The notes beneath the pieces were generated by a model. That model made no database searches. It worked only from the letters and a program-made list of their open reading frames with translations, and was not told the origin of the DNA. The position numbers and the translations under genes are program-made. A stretch of 63,941 nucleotides of DNA, counting the filler, from Globobulimina sp. (taxonomy: Eukaryota): NCBI GenBank assembly GCA_003354225.1. It is 11 parts of 11 records of this genome, joined end to end, with 100 filler letters (N's around TTAATTAATTAA, not from the genome) between each part and the next. Parts side by side here need not be neighbours in the genome. Positions count along the whole stretch, not along the records: positions 1 to 5,746 come from PIVH01000452.1; 10 more parts are not named here. One strand, written 5' to 3'. Of the stretch, positions 1-50,185 are shown in pieces (the stretch's first letter is position 1; each line of letters begins with the position of its first letter).

Positions 1-142
1 TCCTCCCCTATCTTCTACATCTATTAATGATGTACTTTCATCTTCAAATTCTTTCTCATGGTTCTTAAAATGCGATAAAGAAAGCGGGTGAAATTTGTGT
101 GGAGTTCTTTTAGCTATCATGACTATTGACTTAATTGTTTTT

Positions 143-340
143 TTATCTATTGTAAGTAGTACTTGTTCTTTCAGGATCGCTACACATACAAGGAGTTTCA
201 CTACAAGCACCACAGGTTTCTACAGAATAAGGATCATATCCTTCAGCTGAATTTGCTTCCGCTTCGAGTGCCGCTTCATCCCATTTCCTCTCTCTTTCAT
301 TCTCAATCTGAAAATCAACATATTCCCAACATTCTTTAAA
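143..340 (-). CDS. 5'-truncated small acidic ORF with a Cys cluster (CGACSETPCMC), possibly of prokaryotic or phage origin
   Basis: Manual translation FKECWEYVDFQ...CGACSETPCMCSDPERTSTTYNR*. A second ORF (ATG at 120) starts 22 nt downstream and runs off the window. No introns. Confidence 0.35.
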   Translation of the reverse strand, partial: FKECWEYVDFQIENERERKWDEAALEAEANSAEGYDPYSVETCGACSETPCMCSDPERTSTTYNR

Positions 341-341
341 T

Positions 342-3300
342 TATTCCAACTATATTTATTACAAAATAATGAGTGATGATTTCAATAAAATTACAAACAA
401 TATCTGGCAAAAAGCATCAACACCGAATATGTCTAACATTGAGTGTAATGGCCAATGTTATTCCGTGTTGGATAACAAAATATTTATTTTTAATTCTCCA
501 TTGTTAGTTATATACAATATGCAGTCATTCAATTTCATGGACCCTGCTTCCTATCAATCCGACTCAATTTATCCGTATCGTGGAGCCTGTGTTGCCAGTG
601 ATGGTTGGAATATTTTTCTTGTTGGTGGTGACTGTGAAAACTGTTTCACATATCGTACAATTCAAATATACGATTTATTCGCAGATGTTTGGGAAGAATC
701 AAACCATTCTTTATTAATTGGCAGATCCTATTCGGGATGTTTAGTTTCTGCAAACGGCTCATTTTTATATATATTCGGCGGTTACTCCCAAAAACATGAT
801 ATATTAGAAACAAAAATCACTGATACCATTGAAGAATATGATATTTTAAGGTATGTCTGCTTTGCTATTTAATTTCTTTGCTATTCAGTTATTGCATTAC
901 CTTAATATAAGCCAACAAGTTTCATTATTAACCATCACAATGTTGCATAAAAGGATTCAGCACTTTGTCATTTCAAACGTATTTTATCGCAGTGTGATGA
1001 TAATTGTTGGCGGCTATGATGGATATTACAATATAATACCACAAATAGAATTGTTTTATTATAACACTGCTCGCATTCTTTACCATAACAATATGTCCAA
1101 TGATGTGGTCCAATTTGCACCGTTTTTAACAAGTAACATGTTTGGTATTACTGGCGGCATTGACTCATTATCACAATCTGTAAATACATTGTTTTACTAT
1201 GAAAGCAGTGCAGTTCCATGCAATAATTATGCGTGGTGTTATTACGCAGATATCTATCCCTCCATAAATGAGTGGACCACAAACGTTACAGCCTCAATAG
1301 AATACGATTCATTCTCCGATGCATACATAGATATTCATTTTAATATTCATAGCAACGACTGTTTCAATCCAGCCTTTACATTTGATTTTGAATTATTAGA
1401 TTACAATTATGAGGAGAAATACATTCAAATCTTTGATACGAATGGCATAGAAATCACTAAATGTATCGGTCCCTCGTTCCCAGTTTGTAATAAATTCACA
1501 AAATGTATCACGAATTGCAATATTCAACCAAATAAAATCGAAGCAGACAGTGTTTATAAAATATCCTTGTATTTGCCAGGCAATGTGACCGCAGCATGTG
1601 CATTAGCTTTGAAATTAAATGCCCGATTAACTTTGTCATGTTTTGTCCAAACCCAACCTAAAATAAGTGAGTGTCATCCAGGATTGAATGCCTTTGTGGA
1701 CGATTATATGTTTTGTGGCGATGTTGTTTATGGTAAGCCGCAATCCATTGTGTATTCAACAGTGATAAACCAACCACTCAAAGAATTACAGATCAGTTCT
1801 TGTGGAACTACCTATGACACTGTTTTATATCTGTACATTCGCTCAGAAACTGCTGGTCATTTGGCACAATTTTATGATTACTGCGATGACTGTGGGAATT
1901 GCACGGAGCAATATAGTGAACAGTTGATATTATACGATGTTCCCGCAGGGGTTTACTACATTGAACTGGCTCATTATGATACAAGTTTTACAGCAAACGA
2001 TTTGTGGATCCTCTCTCTGGATTGCAATAACCAAACATCCAAACCATTGGTTAATTATTCCATAATTCCACACAAACAAACTCCCTCTTCTTCGCAATGG
2101 ACCACTTTATTAAACATTAAAATGCCACAAACGCTGTTTGCGCACGTTATGGCGTATTGGAATGATTCAATTTATATCATTGGAGGCATATACTCCCCAA
2201 AGAGTAACAGTGAAGCTCTGCTTCTTTCGTTCAAAGTATATTACCAGACCTACAATGCGAGCAATGTCAATAACTGGATGTATGTGGAAATACCGTCAAT
2301 ATACAAAATAGAATGTTGGGCGGATTGCTATGTACAGATTGACGGTTTAATTTACATAATGAATGTCAAAGTGATGAGCTGTCCATCAAATGAAGAATTC
2401 ACATTATATATCTACAATTTATCAGCTTTGGCATTTGTGGATTTATCCAGCTATAAATCAAAACTCTCCGCCACATTGTTTGCGTTTTTCGCGGGCGAAT
2501 ATTGTGTGCCCGCCTGTCTCACCACAAACAAAACGCATATTTTCATGGTATTTGTGCAGGAAATTGTTATTTACGATGTTGTATTGGACGAATACAGTTC
2601 GATAACTTTTGGAAGTCCATTATTTGCCGCATCCGCCTGCAGTATCGACGTTGCATTGCAATCGATTTATATAATGGGCGGAATATATGATGGTCAGAAA
2701 ATATATAAATACGATCTAGAAAATAATATATTAACATTGCTAATTGAGGAATCTGTGCTAAATCAATACAATTCGCGTATAGTAACAACAAATGATAATT
2801 ATATGGTTGTGTTTGGCGGTCTGCATTACAATGATGACTATTTACAGCAAGCTCTGAGTACCGGCTATATTGGCTATGCTATGGAGGGCGGTGATACCAC
2901 AGATCTTTATCGCAGTGTTGTCTTTGATGCCAATACAAATACTTTTTTTAATTTAACAATGGATGATTATTATCCATATGCTGCGTATCTATACGATGCA
3001 AATAACAATGTAATTCTTAGAAGTGGTGGCTGGCAAAAAGCGTCGGTCCATGAATATAAAGACACATTATTTTCAGTGCAGATGTTTAATGCTATGGACA
3101 TATCCACGCATATATTATTTGCTATTAATCACACAATCAGCCCAGGAAATAATTTAATGATTAATTATACTGTAATCGGTCCCAAATCTGTGGAATTTAT
3201 GCAATATCCCCTACAGATTCAATTGTATTCAAATGTTCTGAGTGTTGATGCTGTAATGGTCATACCATCTGATCATGAATGTACTATTTGTGCTGTAAAT

Positions 3301-4482
3301 TGTGTTGCTTGCTCCTTTGGTTTATTTGTACAGATTTCGTCAGCAAATATGATTGGAAATCAGTACAATATTTCCACCCATGCGACCTCTGCGGGATTAC
3401 TATGTGACAATGATTTAATTTTAAGCATAACAACCTGCCAAACTGGTTATAAATTGAATGAAAATGCATCCGCTGTGAACTGTGTCAAAGCTCTCACAAA
3501 ACAACAGATTGCAACAATTGTCGGTACGGCATTCGGTGTCTTGTTTGTTATCCTTTGTGCTGCGATGATATTTGTACGGCATGAATATATGCGGGGAACC
3601 TTTATTGTGGATAAAACCTTGGTGCTATTGATTGGAATCAGTGAATTTGAGGAGAAGACCAAAAATCTGCATGGTGTGAAACAAAATATCGTTGATTTAG
3701 TACATCTGTGGAGGGAATGCTACCATTACAAAGTGGAAGTTTGTCCGCCATATAGCAGTAAAACAGAGGTACAAAACTTTATTGATGCACACAAATATAA
3801 AATAGAAAAGAAAAATTGTGTGATTGTACACGTGATATCACATGGCGGAGAGGATTATTTTGAGACATCTGACTCGAAACTAATATATGTTGACTTCATC
3901 AAACATGAATTAATATCGGCATCGGAATTTGTTAAAAATAGAAATTTGATAAAATTAATATTCCATCATGCTTGCAGAGGGGATAAAGATTACAATATGC
4001 CAACTAAGAGAAAACACGATCCATTATTTGTTGAACAGGCAGTAAACAGAAATAATTCATGTTGCCGCAGTTGTCAATGTTGGAATAAGTCCCAATCACT
4101 GCCGGCATTGAAAAGCATTGAAATTGAAATTGAAATGGCAAGAAATAACAAACAAGCGAATATTTTGAATTTCAATAAGAATAATAATTACAGCAACAGT
4201 GAAGATAAAGTGTTTGAAGATAATTGTGCCACAATTTACGGCAATATTAAAGGTCGCGCACTGTCTGATCTCGGACATTTCACTAAATGCATCTGCCAGT
4301 CGTTTAAAAATAATTTAAAACAAACATTCAAACAAGATTTTAATGCGTTGGTTGCGGAGATTCGGCAAAATTTAAAACAAAAGACAAACAGTGCCGAAAT
4401 AATGCAAAAAGATGACACTATGCAATATTCTCGAATAAGATTTGAAATGTCTAAAAATATAACAAATAAACAGCACAAGTAA
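342..4482 (+). CDS. Type I membrane protein with Kelch-repeat ectodomain, one TM helix and a cytoplasmic caspase-like (peptidase C14) domain; 5' end missing
   Basis: ORFs 369 and 853 join through GT-AG intron 851-911. Kelch GG motifs, TM at about 3508-3576, ISHGG (His 3841) and IFHHACRG (Cys 3973). Confidence 0.8.
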
Positions 4483-4557
4483 ATATAGAACAAACTGATA
4501 CAGCAGTTGACATCTAATATTTTAGTTTTTGTTGAAAAAGTTTGAACCTTCCAAAAC

Positions 4558-5285
4558 ATGACCTCTTTAGTTTATGTCCTTATGCTATTTGCATGTATCC
4601 ACCTGGTACTGTCTGCTGCAGTCACTCAATTAACAGACACCTCATGGGACGAAACAATCACTACATCCGGTATTTGGATGGTTAAATTTTATGCACCGTA
4701 TGCCTGTTCAATAATTATTTTTTTTATCAACAACCCAACAAACCTCTCTATATAACCAGTTGGTGTGCTCATTGTAAGAAATATGCGCCAATTTTCCAGA
4801 AAACAGCAGAAATGACATCGCAAAATAACGGATATATTAAATTTGGGGAAATAGATTGTGACGCACATAAAATAACTTGTGGTGAGTATCATATTACTGG
4901 TTATCCGACCACATTATTATTATATAACGGCAAATTAATTGCAAATTATAAACAATAACGAAACTCTGCGGGCAGAATAAAATCATGGCTTCTGAAAAAT
5001 TTAAATCCTGCAAATTTGCGTGATGCGGATATGTTACATCCAGAGGACATTGAAACTATTACACAAATACCACAAGAATGGAACCGCAGGAAAGCACGCA
5101 ACAATCCACAAAGGAAAGCACATCAGAGACAATTGGGTGACTTATGGCAATTGAATGGATTCAACGACGCATATTATTATGTTTTGGGTGATATTCATCC
5201 AACGGTCCCATTCATTATATATTTAATAGGCACTTTATCGGGAATCATCATTGGTGTTAGTTTTGTTTTTTGTGCTGGGAATTGA
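4558..5285 (+). CDS. TMX/PDI-like thioredoxin membrane protein with one internal in-frame TAA
   Basis: Signal peptide. VKFYAP|WCAHCK is restored by intron 4698-4759. GYPT motif, C-terminal TM, TAA at 4956-4958. Confidence 0.8.
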
Positions 5286-5437
5286 AAACAAATTTAATTT
5301 ATTACACTTGTGCAAGGATAAAATATTTTGTTCAAATGAAAATTGTACAAGACACAGCATAAAAAAAACAGATCTGAATATGAAAAAAATAAATTTATAG
5401 TATAAACTACAAAAAAAAGCTGAACAAGACAATTAAA

Positions 5438-5746
5438 TTACTGTTTGTCATAAAGACCAGATTTTAATCCAAATTTTATTTCATCATCAGACAAACCCGA
5501 TGTTTCCTGCTCAGAATATTCAATTTCTGATTTATAAGTCTTTGATGGATGATACTTATTTAACGCAGACACCGTATGCAAATTTTTCGATAAATTCAAT
5601 AATGTCGCGAGTGATCTTGTTTTAAACGCTGTAAATTTGGCGTTCTCGTCATCAGTGATTGTATCACTTTGCTGCCCTTTGAATGAATAAAACATTTTAT
5701 ATTCAGAATTATCATTGCTTTCGTTCTCCTCCTCGTCCTCCTCACT
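5438..5746 (-). CDS. C-terminal fragment of an unknown protein
   Basis: ORF with an acidic upstream part running to the contig end. Confidence 0.4.
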   Translation of the reverse strand, partial: SEEDEEENESNDNSEYKMFYSFKGQQSDTITDDENAKFTAFKTRSLATLLNLSKNLHTVSALNKYHPSKTYKSEIEYSEQETSGLSDDEIKFGLKSGLYDKQ

Positions 5747-5944: not shown

Positions 5945-6692
5945 TTAACATTTATGATAATCAAAACCACAGATCATAGCACTGATGAAATATATCACAA
6001 TTAAACAGACTAAAGCCAATATCAAAGTCATTTTAATATTTTTCCAAAGCATCCTATTCTTTAATTTCTTGGAATGCCGATTGAATTTCCTTGCTTGGTC
6101 GTCCAACTGATCTGATTTATGCACCAATAATTCGATCTTCTCACCGCGATCTAATACCTTCTCAATACTCTCCAAAACCGTATTCTTTGTCGACTCAATC
6201 TCTTCATTGATTTCATAGATTTTACTATCCGTTGACCGATAGGTTTTATTTCGTGGATCATTGGCCGCCTCCAATAATCTACGTATTACTCCTTGGAAAT
6301 CTGGATTAAATGAATAGGCGATGGCCGTTCTGGCTCTATCTCCAAATGTATCTGTTTGGATATACAATCATTTACAAACACGCGCAGATTCGCACACAGA
6401 ATAATATCGACATACCAACAAATTTATTTTTCATATCCTCTAAAAATCGAAATGGTATCATTCTACCAAATCCTTCATCAGCCATACAAAGATAAGTGAT
6501 GCCATCATCAACAATGTAATGAAATACGTATTTTTCTTTTGGATAGACATATGACATTATTTTATTTTCGGCTGGAATACGCTTTAATAACTGGCGTGTT
6601 ACTTGCTCAAAATTGCCTGTTCTTTCCGTATGTTCTGCTAAGACATCGCTTCCACGCGACACTAGTGCGTAAATTATTTGGTCATCTGACAT
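5945..6692 (-). CDS. VAMP7: Longin R-SNARE (VAMP7 family)
   Basis: Longin domain (IIYALVSRGSDVLAE), intron 6352-6415, synaptobrevin motif VLDRGEKIELLV, C-terminal TM. Confidence 0.92.
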
Positions 6693-7779: not shown

Positions 7780-10700
7780 ATGGCTTTACTATTAGCAATT
7801 ATTTACGTGATATATACGACATTTACAAGCAGTCAAACATTATGGGTTTATGATGCAACATCCTTTCGTGTAGTACCCGACGCAACAACATCACTCAGTG
7901 ATGGCAAAAGTGTCCCTTCAACCAGTGGAGGTTCGTTAACCTTAAGTCAATGCGAAGATGAATGCATTTCTCGTGGTTTTCTATGTTTATCATTCACATG
8001 GAATGGTGATATCACATCATCCGCTTCTACATCCACCTGTAATATGTATAATACCCGATTTGGTTTCGCCAAAGGCGGACTCGACAAAGATACTGATGCC
8101 TTTGGTGAAGGCGACATTGTATATTTAGTATCCAAAGCAGGTAGCAATTATGCCGAAAAACCAATGGATTATTCTGACGTGTTAGGCGACCATTTGATTG
8201 CCAATGCATTGCGATTAAACAACAAACACTATTCCAACTATTTAAATCAGCAGAACAATGCCTTTGATTATCAACAGTTTTTATTATATTACAGAGCGGG
8301 CACACCGGGCTATGTAAACAATTCCCAATCCAATAGCAAATATTCCATAATTAAAGAAGTCTCTGTTGCCGACGCCGAAGAATGTGCCAAACATTGCACC
8401 CGAAATAGAGGCGCCATCGATGAAGAATTGGGTACACGATGTGTATCATTTAATTATCGCAACAGGTTTTTATCGCAACATTTAATTATCCCCAAAAAAT
8501 AATTCCAAACTATAATATGTATACATTACACACAGTGATAAGATTTGTCATTTATTAACGTTTTCATTGGACGCCAGTGGCTATAACATCGACGGGCTGC
8601 CCTCTCAAAGCGACCTCGAAGAGTACTCCAACGACTGGTTTTATTACGAAGGTTTGGTGGGCGTTGGTTGCTGGATCGTGCAGGGACAGTGCCGCAAATG
8701 GGACGATGCCGACTATGTCTCGCAGCAAGAAGGCCAAGGCAACACATTCACTGTGGGCCAACACATCGGCGTCATCCGTGAGTACGCATACGATCCCGTT
8801 TGTAGTCGCTGCTCCAACACTGCTGATTGGACGCATGAATTTGAGTATATTTGCTTGGCCAAAGCGCGCGAATACCACGAGGATTATTGCGATAATGACG
8901 CGGATCAAGCCACTGTGGCCTATTGGGCGCAAGATGGAGCCGGCACCGCTGAGATCTGGAACTCGTGGGATTTAACGGAAGGCTGCGTCATCGACTTGCG
9001 CGGTTTTGAGTGCATTCCAGACCAATCTAAGTATAATTATACCGTACCATTTCCCAATACGCGCTTCGAGGGCAAGAAATTCCGCGACAGTATCGGCGAG
9101 GTGGAGTTTTCCGCCATTGTGGAGAAGGCCTATTGTTGGTTGCGGGCGGCGTCGTGGTATGAGTATTGCGAGCTTGCCGGACAGGCAGTGGATGGGAACA
9201 CGGTGTATTTGAATGTAACGTGGCCGTCGGACGGCTCGTTTTATTTGGAGCCTGCGATTGCGTGCCAATGTGATGAGTATGGTATGAAGATTGAGAAGGA
9301 TTTTGGTCTGGTGCGCGAATACTGCACTAGGGACAGCACGGAGCCGTTTTGTTATAGGGAGAAGCAGGAGAATTACTGGAATGAGCCGGATATTCTATGC
9401 GACGATTTGTCCACGGGGTCCACTTGCGACACTGGCGGGGCGAACGGTATGATATTAAGTAAATTGTGTTGTTTTCCAGCGGTGATTGTGTTTATGTTTA
9501 TGTTTTTTGTTTGAATGCATATAGGTACCGGATGTTATTTATTCTATCCACAGCCGGTCACGATGGAGAGGAGGGCATTGACCTATCACTGTGGCGGAGG
9601 GAGATATAACTTCGACGCCGAGACCTTTACGGAAGTGAACAGCATCTTTTATAGAGAGGTAATGTGTGACGAACAAAATGTAAACGCGGACTGCGGTGCG
9701 TGGAGCAGTGAGGTTTGTGGCGAGTTGGCAGAGGCCATCCATAATGAATGCGGCAATGGTTTGGAAGAGTCATCTGAGCAAATTATTGTATGGTATCGCC
9801 CAACTGGCGAAGTTATGACCTTTCCCAGCTTCGCCAAACCGTTTGAAACCACAGTAACACGGGGGTTCAAACCCGCTGCCGCATACTGGGAGGATACCAG
9901 GACGGCCATCATCGACTATATGCCCATTCGAAATGGCAGATGGCAGACCTGGAAGCCTACAGAAGCTGGGAATTTGCGACAATTGGATGTGTTGTATCGC
10001 AACAACGTGACGTCCGACTTGACCTGCACTATTTGGAGCGGTGTGGGCATCACAAAATCTGTGTTCTTGAATCAAGTGACTATGTCCGTAGAGGCCACAG
10101 AGGCCACGTTTGTGCGCTTCCCGCTGGATAACATCACGCTGACCGCCGGGGATACGTATACCTGGCAAGTGACCTCGTTTTCGTACGACCCCAATTGGCC
10201 GGGAGACTTAGGCTTTATTCGCGGCAACGGATATTCGAACGGCGTGGGGGACTTGGCCTGGGATTACGAGTTTATTGCGTGGGTCGAAGGGCAGTTGGAA
10301 ACCGACCCTGATATGTTGTCGTTGGATGTGGTGGAGACAGCGACCAGGCCATGGTTCGAGATCTGGTGTATTATGATCATCATATTGTTCCTAATATTCA
10401 TGGTATTTCTGTGTATATTGCATTGGAAACGAAAGTATGATGAGGAGCAGGAACGGAAAGAAGATAAAAAATTCCAAGCTGAGCTTCGACAACGTGCCAT
10501 GTTGCAAGCAGAGGCGGAGAGAAATGCGAAGAATCCGGCGGAAGACGAGGCGGATTATGATGAATATGAGGATGGTGATGGTGTAGATGCGGAATCAGTG
10601 TCGGATTATAGCGAAAGAGAGGCGAAATTTCGAGATGAAGAGGATATGAGTGAGCCGGATGAGTATGGTGATGAAGAGTTGAAAGCGAAGCAAACTGGGA

Positions 10701-21650: not shown

Positions 21651-23018
21651 ATGGCAAAGCCAGCTGTTGAATCAAAAGAAAATATTGCTGCCAAGTTAGA
21701 ATGGGATAAAATACCACGTATATTCCACCGATCGTTATTGGGATTAGCGAGTGCGAATGATAAGGATGCATTTGAGAGTTTAATTGAGGCCATTAATGCA
21801 TTTGAAATTGATCAGATATTATCGTGGCAATTTGCTATCCGTAAACAGCAACAAGGTTTGTATACATTGCATGCATCGATTCATGCATAAAAAATATCAC
21901 AATGACAGCAATGACACAATCACCGCAAGTGTCAGGTGTACTTATTTTATTGTTTATGGTAATAATGAATACGTATAAACACAGTAGATAGCAATCGTAT
22001 GATGGATACCTGTCTACTTAAGACGAAAAGTAGCATCATTTGTTTTGGAGACTATGGTAAAAAGAAAAGAAACTTCGGGGACAAAGGATATCTGTATGGC
22101 AACGCAATATGTCTCAAATCGAATAGAAACGGATCTAAGAAATGTACATTTATGCTCAGCGGACACTCAATATATAGCCCGGACCAATATGTAGCATCAT
22201 CGATTGATTTTAAATTGGATGATCTAACATTCACACTCCATTTCCATGCAAACAAAATGCATCAAAATGCAACTCGCGTTGCAGTGACACGATTGCGTGA
22301 TTTAGCGGTTATTGCTATGGATGAAAGCGAAGTGGATGACGTGTTTGTGGCTGCACTTGGGCGGTATGGGCCGACTGAGCGAGGACGGAAACCGAGCGTA
22401 GGTGACAAAGTAGCAATGGTTACCTATGGAAACAAACATTGTTGGAGCAAGCATTTGCAATATGCGTCGGTTACGTATAGCGGGGATTGCTTTTTTATGT
22501 TAGACAAGGATTTGGTCGATGGTGTGTCTGGAAGTCCAGTATTTGACGCAAAGCAGTGTCTGATTGGTATTGTATCGTTTAGCTCTATCTGGAGGATGGT
22601 TGTATTCCGCGTGGATTCTGAGGTTGATTTTAAACAATTACGGCTATTCCCTCAAGTGATGGAAAGCATACTTGTTAACAAAAGAAAAAAAGTCCGTCAA
22701 GTTTAGTATATTTTTTTATATATTAATATAAGTTGATATTAGTATGCAATGACTCGTATACATGTACAGGTTATTGATGCAACAGAAAAAATGCAAAGGT
22801 TAGGAGTCAAATATGAAGAAAGGAAAGGTGATGAGGTCAGTGATGATGAGGCCAGTTATGAGGAGATCAGTGATGAGGAGGTCAGTGATGAGGAGGTCAG
22901 TGATGATGCGGTCAGTGATGATGAGGAGGAGAATGGTGCTGAATGTTTATCGCAATCATCAACAACGTCAACATTTTTAACGCAATCATTCGACGAAAAT
23001 AAGATTATTTTTAGATAA
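21651..23018 (+). CDS. Multi-exon trypsin-like (S1) peptidase with an acidic repetitive tail
   Basis: SGHSI, DLAVI and GVSGSPVF form a candidate H-D-S triad. Flanking exons have GT-AG boundaries. No signal peptide. Confidence 0.6.
22832..22930 (+). repeat. 15-bp coding tandem repeat (SDEEV-like)
   Basis: Repeated gtcagtgatgaggag variants. Confidence 0.85.
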
Positions 23019-23690: not shown

Positions 23691-25183
23691 TCAGTGAGAG
23701 GCAGAATTAAAAATAACAATGGAATTATGCATTCCAGCAATAACAGCACAAGGCTGCAAGTCAGGCAATTTATCACATTTTACTTTTGTTGGTTTCGCAG
23801 CTCTACCAATTTTTAATCCAGATTTAAAATGTTGATTGGATCCATGACTATAGATCTTATTATCTTGTCCAATTAGTATGACATGGTTATACCCACAGCT
23901 TAAATCTTTAAATAGGTTATCTTTTATATCACATTCCCATTTTGTAATATTTACTCTCTCCAATGTTGAAACAATCATTTTACCGAATCCCCCATAATAT
24001 CCTGTATTTGTTAAATAAACAGTAAATGACTCACCACACTCCGCTTTAACTATTGTTTCCGAGATAAATATCATCATTGGGGCGGCTATAACGACCGATA
24101 CTTGCCCCATGTCTTGCGACTGTGAACATTGTTTGTTATCATTCAATCCAAAACACCATAAATTCCCACCGGAATCCACTGCGCAAGAATGGTATTCCCC
24201 ACAATCTATGGCTGTAATTTTAATATTTTCCTCAATAAATGCTGTTATAATCTTCAATTTATTCTCTCGCGATGATAAATAGCCCAAACCACATTGGCCA
24301 TTGTTGTTATTCCCATAGGAATATACTGTTCCATTATCCACCAAAAATAATGAATGCAATAAACCACATTCAATCCATGTTATACTTTGAAATGAATTGT
24401 AATTATATCAACTACAAATATTGAATATATTACGTACCTTAAATGTTTGTTTATGGCTAAATCATCAAACAAATGTTTAATAAATACGCGTTTCCATTCG
24501 CCCATATCACTCATTGTCAGCGAGGACATATAAATCGAGCCATTGGTTAATTTAATTATTACATCATTACTATACATTGAATTTGATATTAATTCGATTT
24601 GTTGTTTCTGATCTACAAAATTAAAATATTTATAAAACGAGGTTATGTGTTTCAAATGGTAGTTATTGTCATTGTCATCAGTTTCATTTAAACACAATCC
24701 ATCAAATAAATTGCTACCAACACCATATATCTCTGAAACATATGATTTTATAAAATATTTATTGTGACCACGGTAAATATTATCCAATGATGATAGTTTT
24801 GGTTCAAATAAATACAATCGTTCAAACTCTGAAATTTCACTGTTTGACATCAAATTTTTACCAATTCCGTACACGCGAAAATATCTTGGCAGAAAGGATA
24901 ATATAAGGGATGTAATGGTGGATGTAATTCGATAAAATGATTTATTTTCGGCATGCATATGGCTTTGATATAATAATTTCTGCATTTGATGAATATATGA
25001 TTGCGTTATTGAAATTCGGTAATTTTTATATGTTTTTCGTACGTGTTGAGAATTATCAATTGTTGGCACTGATGTTTGACGCACAATATTATCCTGTTTA
25101 TCTTTTGATTGATTCAGAGTAACACCTGATTGTATTTGCTCATAATTTGTTGCATCACCAACAACTGCTGCACAAGTACCCAT
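23691..25183 (-). CDS. RCC1/BLIP-II repeat protein, possibly N-myristoylated (MGTC)
   Basis: HSLFL..GTVYSYGNNNNGQCGLG and CGEYHS repeats. One short intron near 24388-24437. Confidence 0.8.
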
Positions 25184-25408: not shown

Positions 25409-26029
25409 TTAATTACATGCACATTTGCTGGATGACTCAGGGGCTGACTTGGATTTATCTAAACCCACAGCGCGGATATTACTCTTTTCAGTGACTCGCG
25501 TATTTGTAATAACAATGTCCTGTGCCAATGTCACGAAAGCTTCATAAACATTAATGTCATTTTTCGCGGATGTTTCGAAAAATTTTATTCCATATTCATT
25601 TGATAATTCTTGCGCCCGGTTTTTTGAAATTACGCGTTCATCATTGCAATCACATTTGTTTCCAATCAACATTTTGTGCACATTTTGCGTAGCATGTTGC
25701 TCAATGTTCCGCATCCAATTGCGTATATTTAAAAAGCTTTGTTCGTCGGTCAGGTCATACACCAAAAGCACTCCCATGGCGCCGCGGTAATAGGCCGTGG
25801 TTATTGTCCTGAACCTTTCCTGTCCGGCGGTGTCCCATATCTGTAATTTTACTCTTTGACCGTCAATTTCAACGGTTTTTAATTTGAAATCGATACCTAT
25901 TGTTGTAATGAAGTTGGTACTGAAAGAATCATCACTAAACCGCAATAATAAGCAACTTTTGCCTACTCCGGAATCTCCAATCATTAAAAGCTTCACTAAA
26001 TGATCATATGCTGAATGACGTGCTGCCAT
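25409..26029 (-). CDS. RAB8: Rab8/Sec4 small GTPase, intronless
   Basis: [50 protein letters not shown]-terminal CACN. Confidence 0.93.
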
Positions 26030-30156: not shown

Positions 30157-30849
30157 CTAATTTCTCTTCTTTTGGATTTTAGTCTTGTTGCTTAAAAAAC
30201 GATATGCAAATAACACCAAAGTAGTAATCATTATGGCAAATACAAAAAAAGCAAATCTCCATAAAGCGCCATAAACAGCAATGGATACTAATGATTCTTG
30301 ATCGGTGTTTAGCGGACTTTGTGGTTTTAATTCATTGATAAGTGACTCTAGATTTTGTGGTGTTTCTGTGCATTGACTAGACGTTATTTGGTATAGTTCC
30401 AACGCATCACCAACAGTCATTGATGGTTTGTTCAACTGTTTATTTACTAAATTATGAATATTCACAGTAAATGCAAATAACTCTGTAGGTGAATTGAGAT
30501 ATTTATCCAAATCAAAATTAATTACATTCTCTTTATAATGATTTGCACATAATCGACATGGAATTATTCGATCGATGTTCAAATAAAATGATTTGTAATT
30601 TTGTTTATCGTTTTCCGATGGATTGTGTGGATAATTTAGTGCCGTGCAATGAAGTGAATTCCATAACTTTGGACCCCAAATCCCTTTATTTCCGAAGCTA
30701 AATCTTTGTTTAGCATTATTCCAGCATGACAATGGTATAATATTTTGTTTGTGATCTGTTAAATTAAGTTCATCATTTTGGAATTCCTCACCTTTTGTAA
30801 ATGATCTTTGATAAAGTAATAAAACTACAACCAACAAATAAGATAACAT
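30157..30849 (-). CDS. Erv1/Alr-family FAD sulfhydryl oxidase with a signal peptide and C-terminal TM
   Basis: IWGPKLWNSLH, PCRLCANHY (CxxC), IHNLVNKQLNKP. Confidence 0.88.
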   Translation of the reverse strand: MLSYLLVVVLLLYQRSFTKGEEFQNDELNLTDHKQNIIPLSCWNNAKQRFSFGNKGIWGPKLWNSLHCTALNYPHNPSENDKQNYKSFYLNIDRIIPCRLCANHYKENVINFDLDKYLNSPTELFAFTVNIHNLVNKQLNKPSMTVGDALELYQITSSQCTETPQNLESLINELKPQSPLNTDQESLVSIAVYGALWRFAFFVFAIMITTLVLFAYRFLSNKTKIQKKRN

Positions 30850-45312: not shown

Positions 45313-46518
45313 ATGTCACTTTCATGGCAACAAACTCTACTTCTCCTATTTGCTATATTCAACTGTAATATCATTTTTAAATGTGAAAGTGTAGAAGCAG
45401 TTGCTGAATGTAGAGACAATGAGTGTACAGAAATGAATAACGAATGCACCGACCATAATGAATTATGTCCCTACTGGGCAGCTATCCATCAATGCCAACG
45501 TAATCACACGTTTATGTTACATGAATGTCCCGTATCGTGTGATTCATGCAATGATATGAATTATAATGAATTATCCATTGGCTGTCCTAAAAAATATCCA
45601 GATTGTGAGTCTTGTTCTGATACACTATCATTTGCCACAAAGTGTCCGCTTTACAAACAAAAAGCAGCATGCAACAAATATCCTGGATATATGATGATTC
45701 ATTGTGCAAAAACATGTAAATATTGTCATTTGCAAAGTAACTATGATTTACGTTGTCCAAAAAACCAGAAACAAATGCAAGAAACGCGTATATTTGCAGC
45801 CAGCGGAGATTTAAATACATTCTTCGAAAATATAGTGTCTACCTACAATATGCATAAAAATCTCACTGAACAGCGTGACGACGGAGTGCTTGAATGGGAG
45901 TTAGAGATTTTGTCAACCGATCCGTGGGTGTTGCGGTTTGATAATTTTTTCACTGAATTGGAGGCCAAAGGCATTATCGAAGCGGCGGGAAAGTTTGAAC
46001 GGTCCACAGATGTGGGAAAAAAGGATAACACCGGACATTTTGCTAAAATTACATCAAAGTCCAGAACTAGTTCGAATGCTTGGTGCCATGAACGGTGTTG
46101 GCGTCATCCAATGGTACAAAGGGTCATGACCCGTACTGAGGGATTGTTGAATATTTCAATGGATAACTCCGAACATTTACAGATATTACAATATGAAGAA
46201 GGTGAATTTTATGCAACGCATAACGATTATATACCAAATCAAGTTGCAATGTCATGTGGTCCGCGTGTGTTGACCTGGTATATGTATTTGAATGATGTCG
46301 AAGAAGGCGGACATACCGCGTTTCCGAAATTGAACTTGTCAAATCCGCCAAAATTGGGTAGAGTTATATTGTGGCCATCTGTTTTGGATTCAGATCCAAT
46401 GAAAGTTGATCGGAGAACGGTTCATACTGCGTTGCCGGTAAAAAAGGGTGTAAAGTATGGTGCAAATGCTTGGATTCATACGTATGACTTCCAAACGCCT
46501 AATTTGTGGTCGTGTACA
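45313..46518 (+). CDS. ShK-domain prolyl 4-hydroxylase (2OG-Fe(II) oxygenase)
   Basis: Signal peptide, ShKT repeats (CPYWA..QC..N..FM...CP.SC), RTSSNAW, HND, YLNDVEEGG.T.F, HTALPV..G.K. Confidence 0.9.
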
Positions 46519-46618
46519 NNNNNNNNNNNNNNNNNNNNNNNNNNNNNNNNNNNNNNNNNNNNTTAATTAATTAANNNNNNNNNNNNNNNNNNNNNNNNNN
46601 NNNNNNNNNNNNNNNNNN

Positions 46619-48850: not shown

Positions 48851-50185
48851 TTATGCTTCTACAATAATGAGTGTTGTACTATCACCAGCAACCACTCTTA
48901 ATATTCGTTTCCCCGCTAAGATAGCAACTTCATCATTGGTCAACACACGCGGCTTTTTAACATGTAACGTTTCCATAGAAGGACTGCATTGCGAATATTG
49001 ATTCGCTCCAAAAGCAATTACTTCATTATTCTGAGTTAATAATATTGTATGAGCACTGCCGCAACTTCCTTGTTCAATTAATACATCCTTAAATGTTTTG
49101 TTCGCTGTTTGAAACACGTTGATCACAAACGGTTTGCTTGGTTCATGTACCTGATAACTCGAATTGTCTCCAAATAAATATGCGATATGTTGCGAATCAA
49201 TGCATAAAGAATGGTGACTCTTTGTATGTATAAATACAATCTCTTTATCTTTGAAATATGAATGCAATGCTGGACGTTTAATAGTTGACACATTCGCAAT
49301 GCCACAGTTATTTGCTGAATTCTTGCCAAATACATATAACTTATTGCTGTCAGAAACACACAAACAATGATAACTGCCGACTTTGATTTGTGTAATAACA
49401 GCATTGCATTCCAGAGGAGTTATTTCCGTGATTTTTTCTTGTGCAGTATTTATGCCGCATTGATTATGTGTATTATCCCCCCACGCAAACATGGTACCTT
49501 TCTCATTCAAACACAAAACGTGCGTCGAAGAGCATTCGATTTGAATGATGTTACCAAAGTTTGCTGGCAATTTAAGATTGATTTTTACTGCTTTTTTGTA
49601 GCTATATTCTGTAGCACCATTTCCAAATTGTCCACACGAGTTAATGCCGGTTGCGTACATTAGACCGTTTATGCAAAAAACCATTGTATTTGAACCACTA
49701 CCAACAACCGAGGATGATATGTAATTGTCAGGCAACTCTATATTTTGCATATCAATCTCCAATAAATGTGAAAGTTTTTGGGAATAATTGGTGCCACAAT
49801 CACCGTTATAATTATTGCCGAGTGAAAAAATCTTATTTTCGTTTGTTTTTATTGTGAATCTATGAAAACCAGTGTATAAATGTTTTGGGTCAAACAAATG
49901 ATCAGAAAATGTTGATAATTTTGTAAATGAAGTGAATGTGCTTCCTCTGCCCAATTCATTATAACTATTAGATCCAATCCCATACACTTCACCTAAAAAA
50001 TAGTATAGCTCTGCAATGTTCTAAAGAAATGAACGTGGATTTATAACAGAACATTAACATCGTCGGGGATAGAATAAATAAATGATATGTTTGATTGGAT
50101 TGGGAATATTAGACGATAAATTATTTGCTGTTTCTTCTTGACGAATATAGCCAGAGATCAGCAAAATGCATCTTTTTGAGAACAT
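48851..50185 (-). CDS. RCC1-repeat protein with an N-terminal LISGYIR...IPNPI motif
   Basis: Exon 1 MFSKRCILLISGYIRQ..., one intron near 49993-50059, multiple GxNxxGQ repeats. Confidence 0.8.

Follow-up and report, generated by a model that had tools for sequence, protein, structure and literature searches.

A predicted membrane receptor with a caspase-type protease domain in Globobulimina and a large foraminiferal family of the same architecture

A gene for a membrane protein with a C-terminal caspase-type domain

The stretch of DNA analyzed here (hereafter the window) comprises 63,941 nucleotides of the Globobulimina sp. genome assembly GCA_003354225.1, with 11 parts joined end to end and 100 filler letters between each part and the next; positions 1 to 5,746 come from record PIVH01000452.1. 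This first part encodes, on the plus strand, a protein in which a large N-terminal outer part with two Kelch-like blocks, a transmembrane (TM) helix and a C-terminal domain of the Peptidase_C14 family (hereafter the C14 domain) are combined. The protein is most likely a type I receptor with a cytoplasmic caspase-type protease, and it belongs to a foraminiferal family with the same core layout.

An open reading frame (ORF) scan identifies 1209 codons at 853-4482 on the plus strand, the start of which is overlapped by a shorter frame on the same strand (369-872). Contigs of the sequencing runs X3, X6 and X8, which come from three studies, omit 61 bases (joint from 846 to 908, resolved to GT..AG by a cut at +4), so that the product consists of exon 1 joined to exon 2. 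Exon 1 (312..850) carries Kelch-like block 1 in a frame that is open from 312, with the first ATG at 369, and exon 2 (912..4482, including the stop codon at 4480-4482) continues in a single frame through the remainder of the outer part and the TM helix to the caspase-type domain. The intron between them (851..911) is of phase 2, with the donor GTATGT and an acceptor ending in AAG, and is retained in record 1 of run X1. An alternative acceptor at 953 was ruled out by these contigs. Downstream of the intron the contigs are colinear with the window from 908 to 4475 or 4496, the sole further joint being found in one low-depth X1 record. The original prediction had read the gene as a single stretch at 342..4482; the single polypeptide and the end at 4482 hold, whereas the start at 342 and the uninterrupted reading have to be given up, the former in view of the frame open from 312 and a true start further upstream, the latter in view of the intron.

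Because the Kelch-type alignment precedes the ATG at 369 and the contigs stay open upstream of 320, we place the true start of the protein farther 5' and regard window positions 1-319 as not representing it. Kelch-like block 2 aligns (tblastn) to window positions 321-836, that is, from a point 5' of this ATG, and three contigs of X1 together with 188 letters of X6 extend 5' of 320 with letters unlike the window. A 30-letter upstream consensus of the contigs is stop-free in the frame of the gene and, read by eye, ends in a Kelch-strand-like ..LHIVGGKTGQ. Within the window the frame is closed by an in-frame TGA at 309-311, and positions 1-314 are covered by none of the four sequencing runs. Positions 1-319 may reflect structural variation, an erroneous join or an artefact at the contig end; on the minus strand, an ORF extends beyond the window at its start.

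At the 3' end, the X1 and X3 contigs depart from the window after 4475, and in X6 an additional A follows 4474; the last residues are therefore variable. In addition, contigs of X6 and X8 contain an in-frame 6-base insertion after 2273, in two variants. The outer part and the last few residues are polymorphic. Among the differences between runs and window, 23 of the 40 listed are synonymous, compared to 20% expected for random changes, which implies that the gene is evolving under purifying selection, as far as can be judged from these 40 (178 more differences exist).

The junction of the TM helix and the protease domain is crossed by contigs of three runs from three studies, namely X6 record 21 (2638-4496), X3 record 14 (3091-4070) and X1 record 7 (3517-4039), the X6 contig being approximately 96% identical to the window with the frame kept, and two genomic contigs of another assembly have this layout as well. 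The junction, for which a chimera had been considered in the original prediction, is thus not chimeric. An assembly or annotation artefact that joined two genes could be invoked on the ground that the window is unlike the run contigs upstream of 320 and downstream of 4475. Such an origin is exceedingly improbable and is refuted as far as the contigs show, given the single uninterrupted frame, the three bridging runs, and the recurrence of the layout in 116 of 119 relatives (see below) as well as in the two genomic contigs.

The outer part of the protein most likely consists of two Kelch-like propeller blocks, a Cys-rich module and a Cys-containing juxtamembrane stretch, all predicted, by analogy, to face outward. 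For exon 1, Pfam returns Kelch-type matches with E-values from 3.6e-8 (PF24681) to 1.1e-3. Block 2 (2134..2979, plus strand; residues 428-709 of protein P0001) matches PF24981 (E=8.7e-11, 42 bits against a cut-off of 50) and PF24681 (E=2.2e-6), with additional traces of Kelch_4, Kelch_6 and Kelch_2. A tblastn comparison of the two blocks (E=1.2e-7) shows them to be paralogs. The Cys-rich middle module, read from the translation with approximate limits at 1200..2100 (plus strand), has no Pfam match; it may be PPC/jelly-roll-like, with a weak language-model lead to clusters of PPC-domain proteins (score 0.87). The arrangement of two Kelch-like blocks that flank a Cys-rich module, as originally proposed, is therefore backed by the significant E-values and the mutual paralogy of the blocks, but not by profile scores, which stay below the Pfam cut-offs. 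A single-sequence model of block 2 and the juxtamembrane part (2095-3516) was too low in confidence for use (predicted local distance difference test, pLDDT, of 33.5). A likeness that the outer part seemed, by eye, to bear to PPC-like and juxtamembrane modules of relatives is unsupported apart from the 0.87 lead, both searches for relatives of the outer part (given below) being empty.

The TM helix (3508..3576, plus strand) is the only one between the N-terminal outer part and the C-terminal catalytic part of this protein. The translation was checked, and the hydropathy maximum lies there (Kyte-Doolittle 19-mer maximum of 2.65 at residues 889-907 of P0001), in agreement with the single TM helix of the original prediction. 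The protease domain begins approximately 7-12 residues past the helix and ends at the C-terminus of the protein.

Fold of the protease domain

The C-terminal domain matches the Peptidase_C14 profile PF00656 (E=1.3e-12) over profile positions 3-219 of 233, with a score of 48.4 bits that clears the curated cut-off of 21.4. The only solved proteins matched by sequence are caspases (CED-3, E=0.0055, and caspase-2, E=0.018), and a profile of the family described below matches the caspase-2 p18 subunit with E=0.0016; the p10-like half alone, compared to the sequences in the PDB, yielded two chance matches only (E of 0.41 and 1). A structure model of the domain, built on an alignment of 35 family members, has a pLDDT of 83.2 and a predicted template modeling score of 0.77. 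In this model, the fold is caspase-type, with both halves present in the order p20-linker-p10. The p20-like half (3598..3987, plus strand; model residues 8-137) is delimited by PF00656, the CED-3/caspase-2 alignment, the model and conservation, the linker (4024..4188, plus strand; residues 150-204) is predicted to be disordered, with pLDDT below 50, and the p10-like half (4225..4443, plus strand; residues 217-289) contains, from 4225 of the plus strand, the translated segment CATIYGNIKGRA. The model aligns to caspases over residues 4-293.

In a Foldseek search with the model, the top ranks are taken by CED-3 and caspases 8, 7, 3 and 9 (E about 1e-11 to 1e-10); the first MALT1 entry is at rank 32. 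Structure comparison gives the highest scores to caspase-3 (26.2), caspase-8 (25.5), caspase-9 (25.2) and CED-3 (22.8), followed by MALT1 (22.6), cFLIP (20.5), Arabidopsis metacaspases 4 (19.0) and 9 (17.9), GPI8 (17.1), Yca1 (17.0), legumain (16.2), a CHAT protease (14.8) and Trypanosoma MCA2 (13.4). The nearest language-model neighbors are clusters of animal caspases (0.94), and 29 of 30 matches carry Peptidase_C14. These three rankings indicate that the domain, as modeled, is of the caspase type and closer to caspases than to paracaspases, metacaspases and other families of clan CD, so that the assignment to caspases made from the motifs alone in the original prediction is confirmed at the level of the predicted fold. 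No death domain or other death-fold domain, and no Ig domain, was detected in the window copy by Pfam at E<=1. A homodimer prediction for the domain scored 0.26, against a mark of 0.32, which counts neither for nor against binding.

A family of receptor-like proteins in foraminifera

An exhaustive HMMER search of 1.84 billion cluster representatives with the 301-residue cytoplasmic part retrieved 156 proteins at E<=1e-3, with 142 at E<=1e-10 and 102 at E<=1e-30. Among the 150 matches listed, most are long proteins with the match at the C-terminal end, and none is an animal caspase. We looked up the source of 30 members: 23 are EukProt records of Bolivina argentea, 5 are from Nonionella stella and 2 are ENA proteins; bacterial proteins and Reticulomyxa proteins are absent from these 30. 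A search restricted to lengths near 301 amino acids returned three fragments of the family and no named protein.

The TM helix lies directly upstream of the C14 domain in 116 of the 119 testable members, with a median gap of 3 residues. Members were considered testable when the sequence included the N-terminal domain edge plus 45 or more residues upstream, and the TM helix was called as a hydrophobic 19-mer with a Kyte-Doolittle value of at least 1.6; P0014, P0063 and P0071 are the three members without such a call. The cut-off of PF00656 is passed by 4 of 8 relatives in one sample and by 27 of 35 long members in another.

The outer parts are far less uniform. In the 35 long members, Lectin_C was found in five (above the cut-off in three) and Ldl_recept_a in one, in each case N-terminal of the TM helix, and Kelch-type matches, all under the cut-offs, in three; other family members have PT-rich stalks. 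Foraminiferal proteins with a TM helix, a C14 domain and varied ectodomains, the existence of which had been anticipated, were thus found in large numbers. The same layout is seen in genomic DNA from another assembly. In contig L001, a single ORF of 923 codons spans an outer part, a TM helix and the whole of a C14 domain. Contig L002 encodes a signal peptide followed by repeated Cys-rich modules and a lectin-like module, and then a TM helix and the first portion of a C14 domain.

At positions 499-2151 of L002, the signal peptide is followed by three repeats of the Cys module and a C-type-lectin-like stretch; the repeat reads ..CG..L.G.....D.DY.YF.L....V.FDSC.SDYDTYL.L.D......GDDDG.C... and resembles the Cys-rich module of the window by eye only. 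In P0040, P0056, P0084, P0106, P0127 and P0132, the unit of TM helix and C14 domain is located near the N-terminus and is followed by 376-961 residues; these proteins represent either a second architecture or fused transcript assemblies. The downstream part of P0040 contains Notch LNR and leucine-rich repeat matches and more hydrophobic segments.

The architecture is real, conserved and abundant in foraminifera. Judging from the sequences, the family consists of predicted type I membrane proteins in which a constant cytoplasmic caspase-type domain is combined with swapped and diversified outer parts.

Active site, S1 pocket and linker

Both residues of the catalytic dyad align with the SHG and QACRG motifs of CED-3 and caspase-2: His89 (codon 3841-3843) lies in SHG (3838-3846) and Cys133 (codon 3973-3975) in HHACRG (3964-3981), all on the plus strand. 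The two motifs, noticed already in the original prediction, are conserved family-wide, with the His present in 136 of 138 members and the Cys in 133 of 137. Gly135 (133 of 135) and Arg227 (127 of 139) are similarly retained. Were the domain a catalytically dead scaffold that, in the manner of cFLIP, only recruits partners, conservation of the dyad at this level would be unexpected, and we regard such a role as very improbable.

The S1 pocket by which caspases accept Asp is basic and is formed by Arg179, Gln283 and Arg341 (caspase-1 numbering). According to the CED-3 alignment, the position of Arg179 is taken by Leu31 (3667-3669, plus strand), which is Leu in 123 of 129 members, so that the deviation suspected in this segment is genuine. 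At the position of Gln283, the Gln of QACRG, there is His131 (3967-3969, plus strand; conserved in 131 of 137). The conserved Arg of the p10-like half, Arg227 (4255-4257, plus strand), is located in the model six residues past the first p10 strand and seven before the next helix, a spacing that we take to be that of Arg341 in caspase-3, with a fit by spacing only. Paracaspases and metacaspases specific for Arg or Lys have an acidic S1 pocket. Because none of the three positions (Leu31, His131 and Arg227) is acidic in the window protein, a preference for Arg or Lys of the metacaspase or paracaspase kind appears unlikely.

The linker between the two halves ranges from 21 to 128 residues across the family (median 46.5). 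In the window copy, the disordered linker includes the Cys cluster SCCRSCQC (4057-4080, plus strand). Defined as at least 3 Cys in 12 residues (up to 7 were seen), such a cluster recurs in the linker of 23 of 128 members, 10-25 residues past the catalytic motif. Given the nearby membrane, the cluster resembles a site for palmitoylation or metal binding, by which the linker could be held or regulated.

These features are pertinent to a self-processing receptor that would be its own main substrate: once engaged, it would use the C14 domain to cleave its linker or tail, or a neighboring receptor, and so release a signaling cytoplasmic fragment. The linker is long, disordered and variable, the Cys clusters could pin it to the membrane until it is cut, and the tails past the domain also vary in the family, from 0 to more than 100 residues. 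However, the window copy, with the domain at its very C-terminus, has no tail to release, and no conserved cleavage motif was identified; we consider this scheme improbable.

Membrane topology

The protease domain is predicted to be cytoplasmic in the family because of signal-like starts, extracellular-type modules and a bias of positive charges toward the C14 side of the membrane. A signal-like hydrophobic start is present in 73 of the 114 long members that begin with Met, and many of the other 41 look 5'-truncated. In the 15 residues that flank the TM helix, the mean number of Lys and Arg is 2.88 after the helix compared to 1.80 before it (more after in 72 members, equal in 19 and fewer in 25; n=116). 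N-glycosylation sequons are more frequent in the N-terminal parts (2.13 per 100 residues) than in the C-terminal parts (1.12). For the window copy, the 5' end of which is missing from the window, the type I orientation with a cytoplasmic protease is drawn by analogy with the family only. A luminal protease, which would have contradicted the original prediction, is thus disfavored by the family evidence, and for the window copy by this analogy.

Kelch domains are usually cytoplasmic, and a protein with the Kelch part in the cytoplasm and the C14 domain in the lumen or outside, as in the GPI transamidase subunit, would be compatible with the window copy when this is taken by itself: no signal peptide is seen in it, the true N-terminus being outside the window, and the stretch read from the ATG at 369 is not hydrophobic. 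The two sides of its membrane segment are not separated by Cys density (3.36% compared to 3.65%) or told apart by flanking charges (2 compared to 3 Lys and Arg), and sequon densities do not distinguish them either. All these observations weigh against the orientation that we prefer. Against the inverted one stand the signal-like segments in 73 of 114 relatives and the one in the genomic DNA of L002, the Lectin_C and LDLa modules N-terminal of the TM helix, and the charge distribution, which favors a cytoplasmic C14 side; the 5' end of the window copy is simply missing. An inverted topology accordingly has only a very small chance of being correct.

Proposed mechanism of activation and its alternatives

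Initiator caspases are monomeric and inactive until proximity to one another activates them. Because the protease of the window protein adjoins the membrane, keeps the catalytic dyad and is most similar to caspases, we consider it probable that the protein is a type I receptor with an outward sensor part and a cytoplasmic caspase-type protease that is activated by ligand-driven clustering. An external ligand, such as a surface of prey, a microbe, a symbiont or non-self, would bring two or more receptors together; dimerization of the tethered protease domains, in the manner of initiator caspases, would then activate them, perhaps with prior cleavage of the disordered linker. The active proteases would cleave cytoplasmic substrates near the contact site, the outcome being an adaptor-free outside-in protease signal. 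Of the original idea of a receptor-caspase in one polypeptide, the fusion and the fold hold, and a family has been added; the ligand-induced clustering and the immune or death output are still what we infer, as are catalytic activity and biological output in general.

Several findings run counter to this reading of the window protein as a clustering-activated caspase-type receptor. Sequence similarity to caspases of known structure is weak, with E=0.0055 for CED-3 and, when the family profile is used, 0.0016 for caspase-2, and the AlphaFold model may lean toward caspases, so many caspase structures having been solved. At two of the three caspase S1 positions, those of Arg179 and Gln283, the residue is replaced, so that Asp specificity is uncertain and the activity itself putative. 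Every Kelch profile match is under the curated cut-off of Pfam in spite of the significant E-values. Finally, relatives of the outer part were found neither among 4801 word candidates in a set of 5.8 billion sequences (0 of 4801) nor among the 155 other family members (0 of 155, local phmmer, E<=0.01).

A different possibility is a tethered protease that is constitutive or otherwise regulated rather than gated by a ligand, with the outer part serving for adhesion or for targeting to pseudopodial or test-forming membranes, and with local remodeling of the cortex as the function. The start of the domain about 3 residues past the TM helix in the family suits local action at the membrane, and Kelch, lectin and PT-rich stalk modules occur in adhesion proteins as well. 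Nevertheless, the combination of a constant protease with many unrelated outer parts is a pattern of receptor families rather than of a housekeeping enzyme, and the closest folds are those of caspases, which are inactive until dimerized or cleaved; we therefore view the ungated protease as unlikely, although it is the alternative that we take most seriously.

With ligand-driven clustering as the preferred mode of activation, a broader proposal can be put forward tentatively, with somewhat more doubt than confidence. Foraminifera may hold a large, fast-diversifying repertoire of adaptor-free receptor-caspases, the lectin, propeller, LDLa and PPC-like outer domains of which would recognize prey, microbes, symbionts or non-self, and clustering would fire the protease, leading to local dismantling of the cytoskeleton or to cell death.

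The prevailing view is that caspases arose in animals and connect to receptors solely via death-fold adaptors, with metacaspases as the enzymes assigned to protists. In the present family, a protease with a predicted fold and motifs closest to those of animal caspases is joined directly to the predicted inner end of a receptor-like protein in at least 150 sequence clusters, from at least two foraminiferal species plus the Globobulimina genome. If the protease is switched on by clustering, this would be the simplest possible pathway from receptor to protease and a natural test of the induced-proximity model. Alongside the death receptors of animals and the conflict systems of bacteria, it would also be a third, independent way in which recognition at the cell surface is wired to a protease, and would mean that enzymes of the caspase type, not the metacaspase type, have a signaling role outside animals. 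The finding offers a concrete way into the question of how giant unicellular organisms, which feed, harbor symbionts and fuse their pseudopods, distinguish self from prey.

Comparison with known systems

Animal initiator caspases (caspase-8, caspase-9 and CED-3; MEROPS C14A) combine the protease with a CARD or DED prodomain and depend on an adaptor, whereas the proteins described here have a TM helix and a large outer part in its place; in addition, Leu and His occupy the positions of Arg179 and Gln283, and the sequence similarity is marginal (E about 1e-3). The scheme of an outside ligand, clustering and activation of a caspase at the membrane is shared, as a functional analogy, with the animal death-inducing signaling complex of death receptor, FADD and caspase-8, the difference being that the receptor and the protease form one polypeptide here and that Pfam detects no death-fold domain. 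MALT1 is soluble, with a death domain, Ig domains and an acidic S1 pocket for Arg, unlike the present protein with its Leu, His and Arg and a TM helix before the protease. The GPI transamidase subunit PIGK/GPI8 belongs to family C13 and has a lumenal catalytic domain followed by a C-terminal TM helix; here the domain follows the helix and is predicted to be cytoplasmic from the family evidence, and the Z score of GPI8 is much lower than those of the caspases.

The nearest design precedent, as described in the passages of Kaur et al. 2020 on their System 4 (PMC7159879), appears to be the bacterial EACC1-caspase systems. These are two-gene systems, variants of which contain TM helices and an extracellular periplasmic-binding domain, so that, according to the same passages, a protease of the caspase superfamily is joined via TM helices to an outward binding domain and the variable part is highly diverse. 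They differ from the foraminiferal proteins in being prokaryotic, in the N-terminal position of the caspase, in the separate small EACC1 membrane protein and in belonging to another branch of the superfamily.

Caspase-like C14 proteins of Reticulomyxa filosa are reported to branch with animal caspases (Klim et al. 2018, PMC5982838), and one of them, ETO10778.1, serves as an outgroup in a later study (PMC10959488). They probably belong to the same family as the receptor-caspase of the window or to a sister family. The passages of Klim et al. considered here mention no receptor, kelch domain, TM anchor or family size, and use "transmembrane" only for mitochondria. The present family bears on the question whether caspase-type enzymes predate animals, as argued there from Reticulomyxa. 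No description of a natural eukaryotic transmembrane caspase was found in the literature searched, which left most subscription journals out of reach.

Genomic surroundings

No second copy of the C14 domain was detected in the window by tblastn, and no genes related to the receptor-caspase adjoin it there. Immediately downstream, at 4558-4755 (plus strand), the start of a secreted thioredoxin/PDI-like protein was recognized by eye, with strong X3 and X6 coverage, and at 5945-6692 (minus strand), likewise by eye, a longin-SNARE (VAMP7-like) gene in two ORFs; neither has an apparent relation to the receptor. The rest of the window (7780-63344) is an ordinary gene-dense eukaryotic context, with a PAN domain (7780-8499), a trypsin-like protease (21999-22703), two RCC1-like genes (23694-24359 and 48854-49987), a Rab/Ras GTPase (25412-26029), Erv1 (30160-30849) and a protein with ShK and 2OG oxygenase domains (45313-46563), as well as a GDSL lipase, an Hsp70 fragment and SPRY. 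The GC content is 0.47 at 8001-10000, compared to 0.27-0.39 elsewhere in the window. Positions 5747-58234 contain twenty runs of exactly 44 N, paired approximately 5.8 kb apart, a regular spacing that resembles masking rather than assembly gaps.

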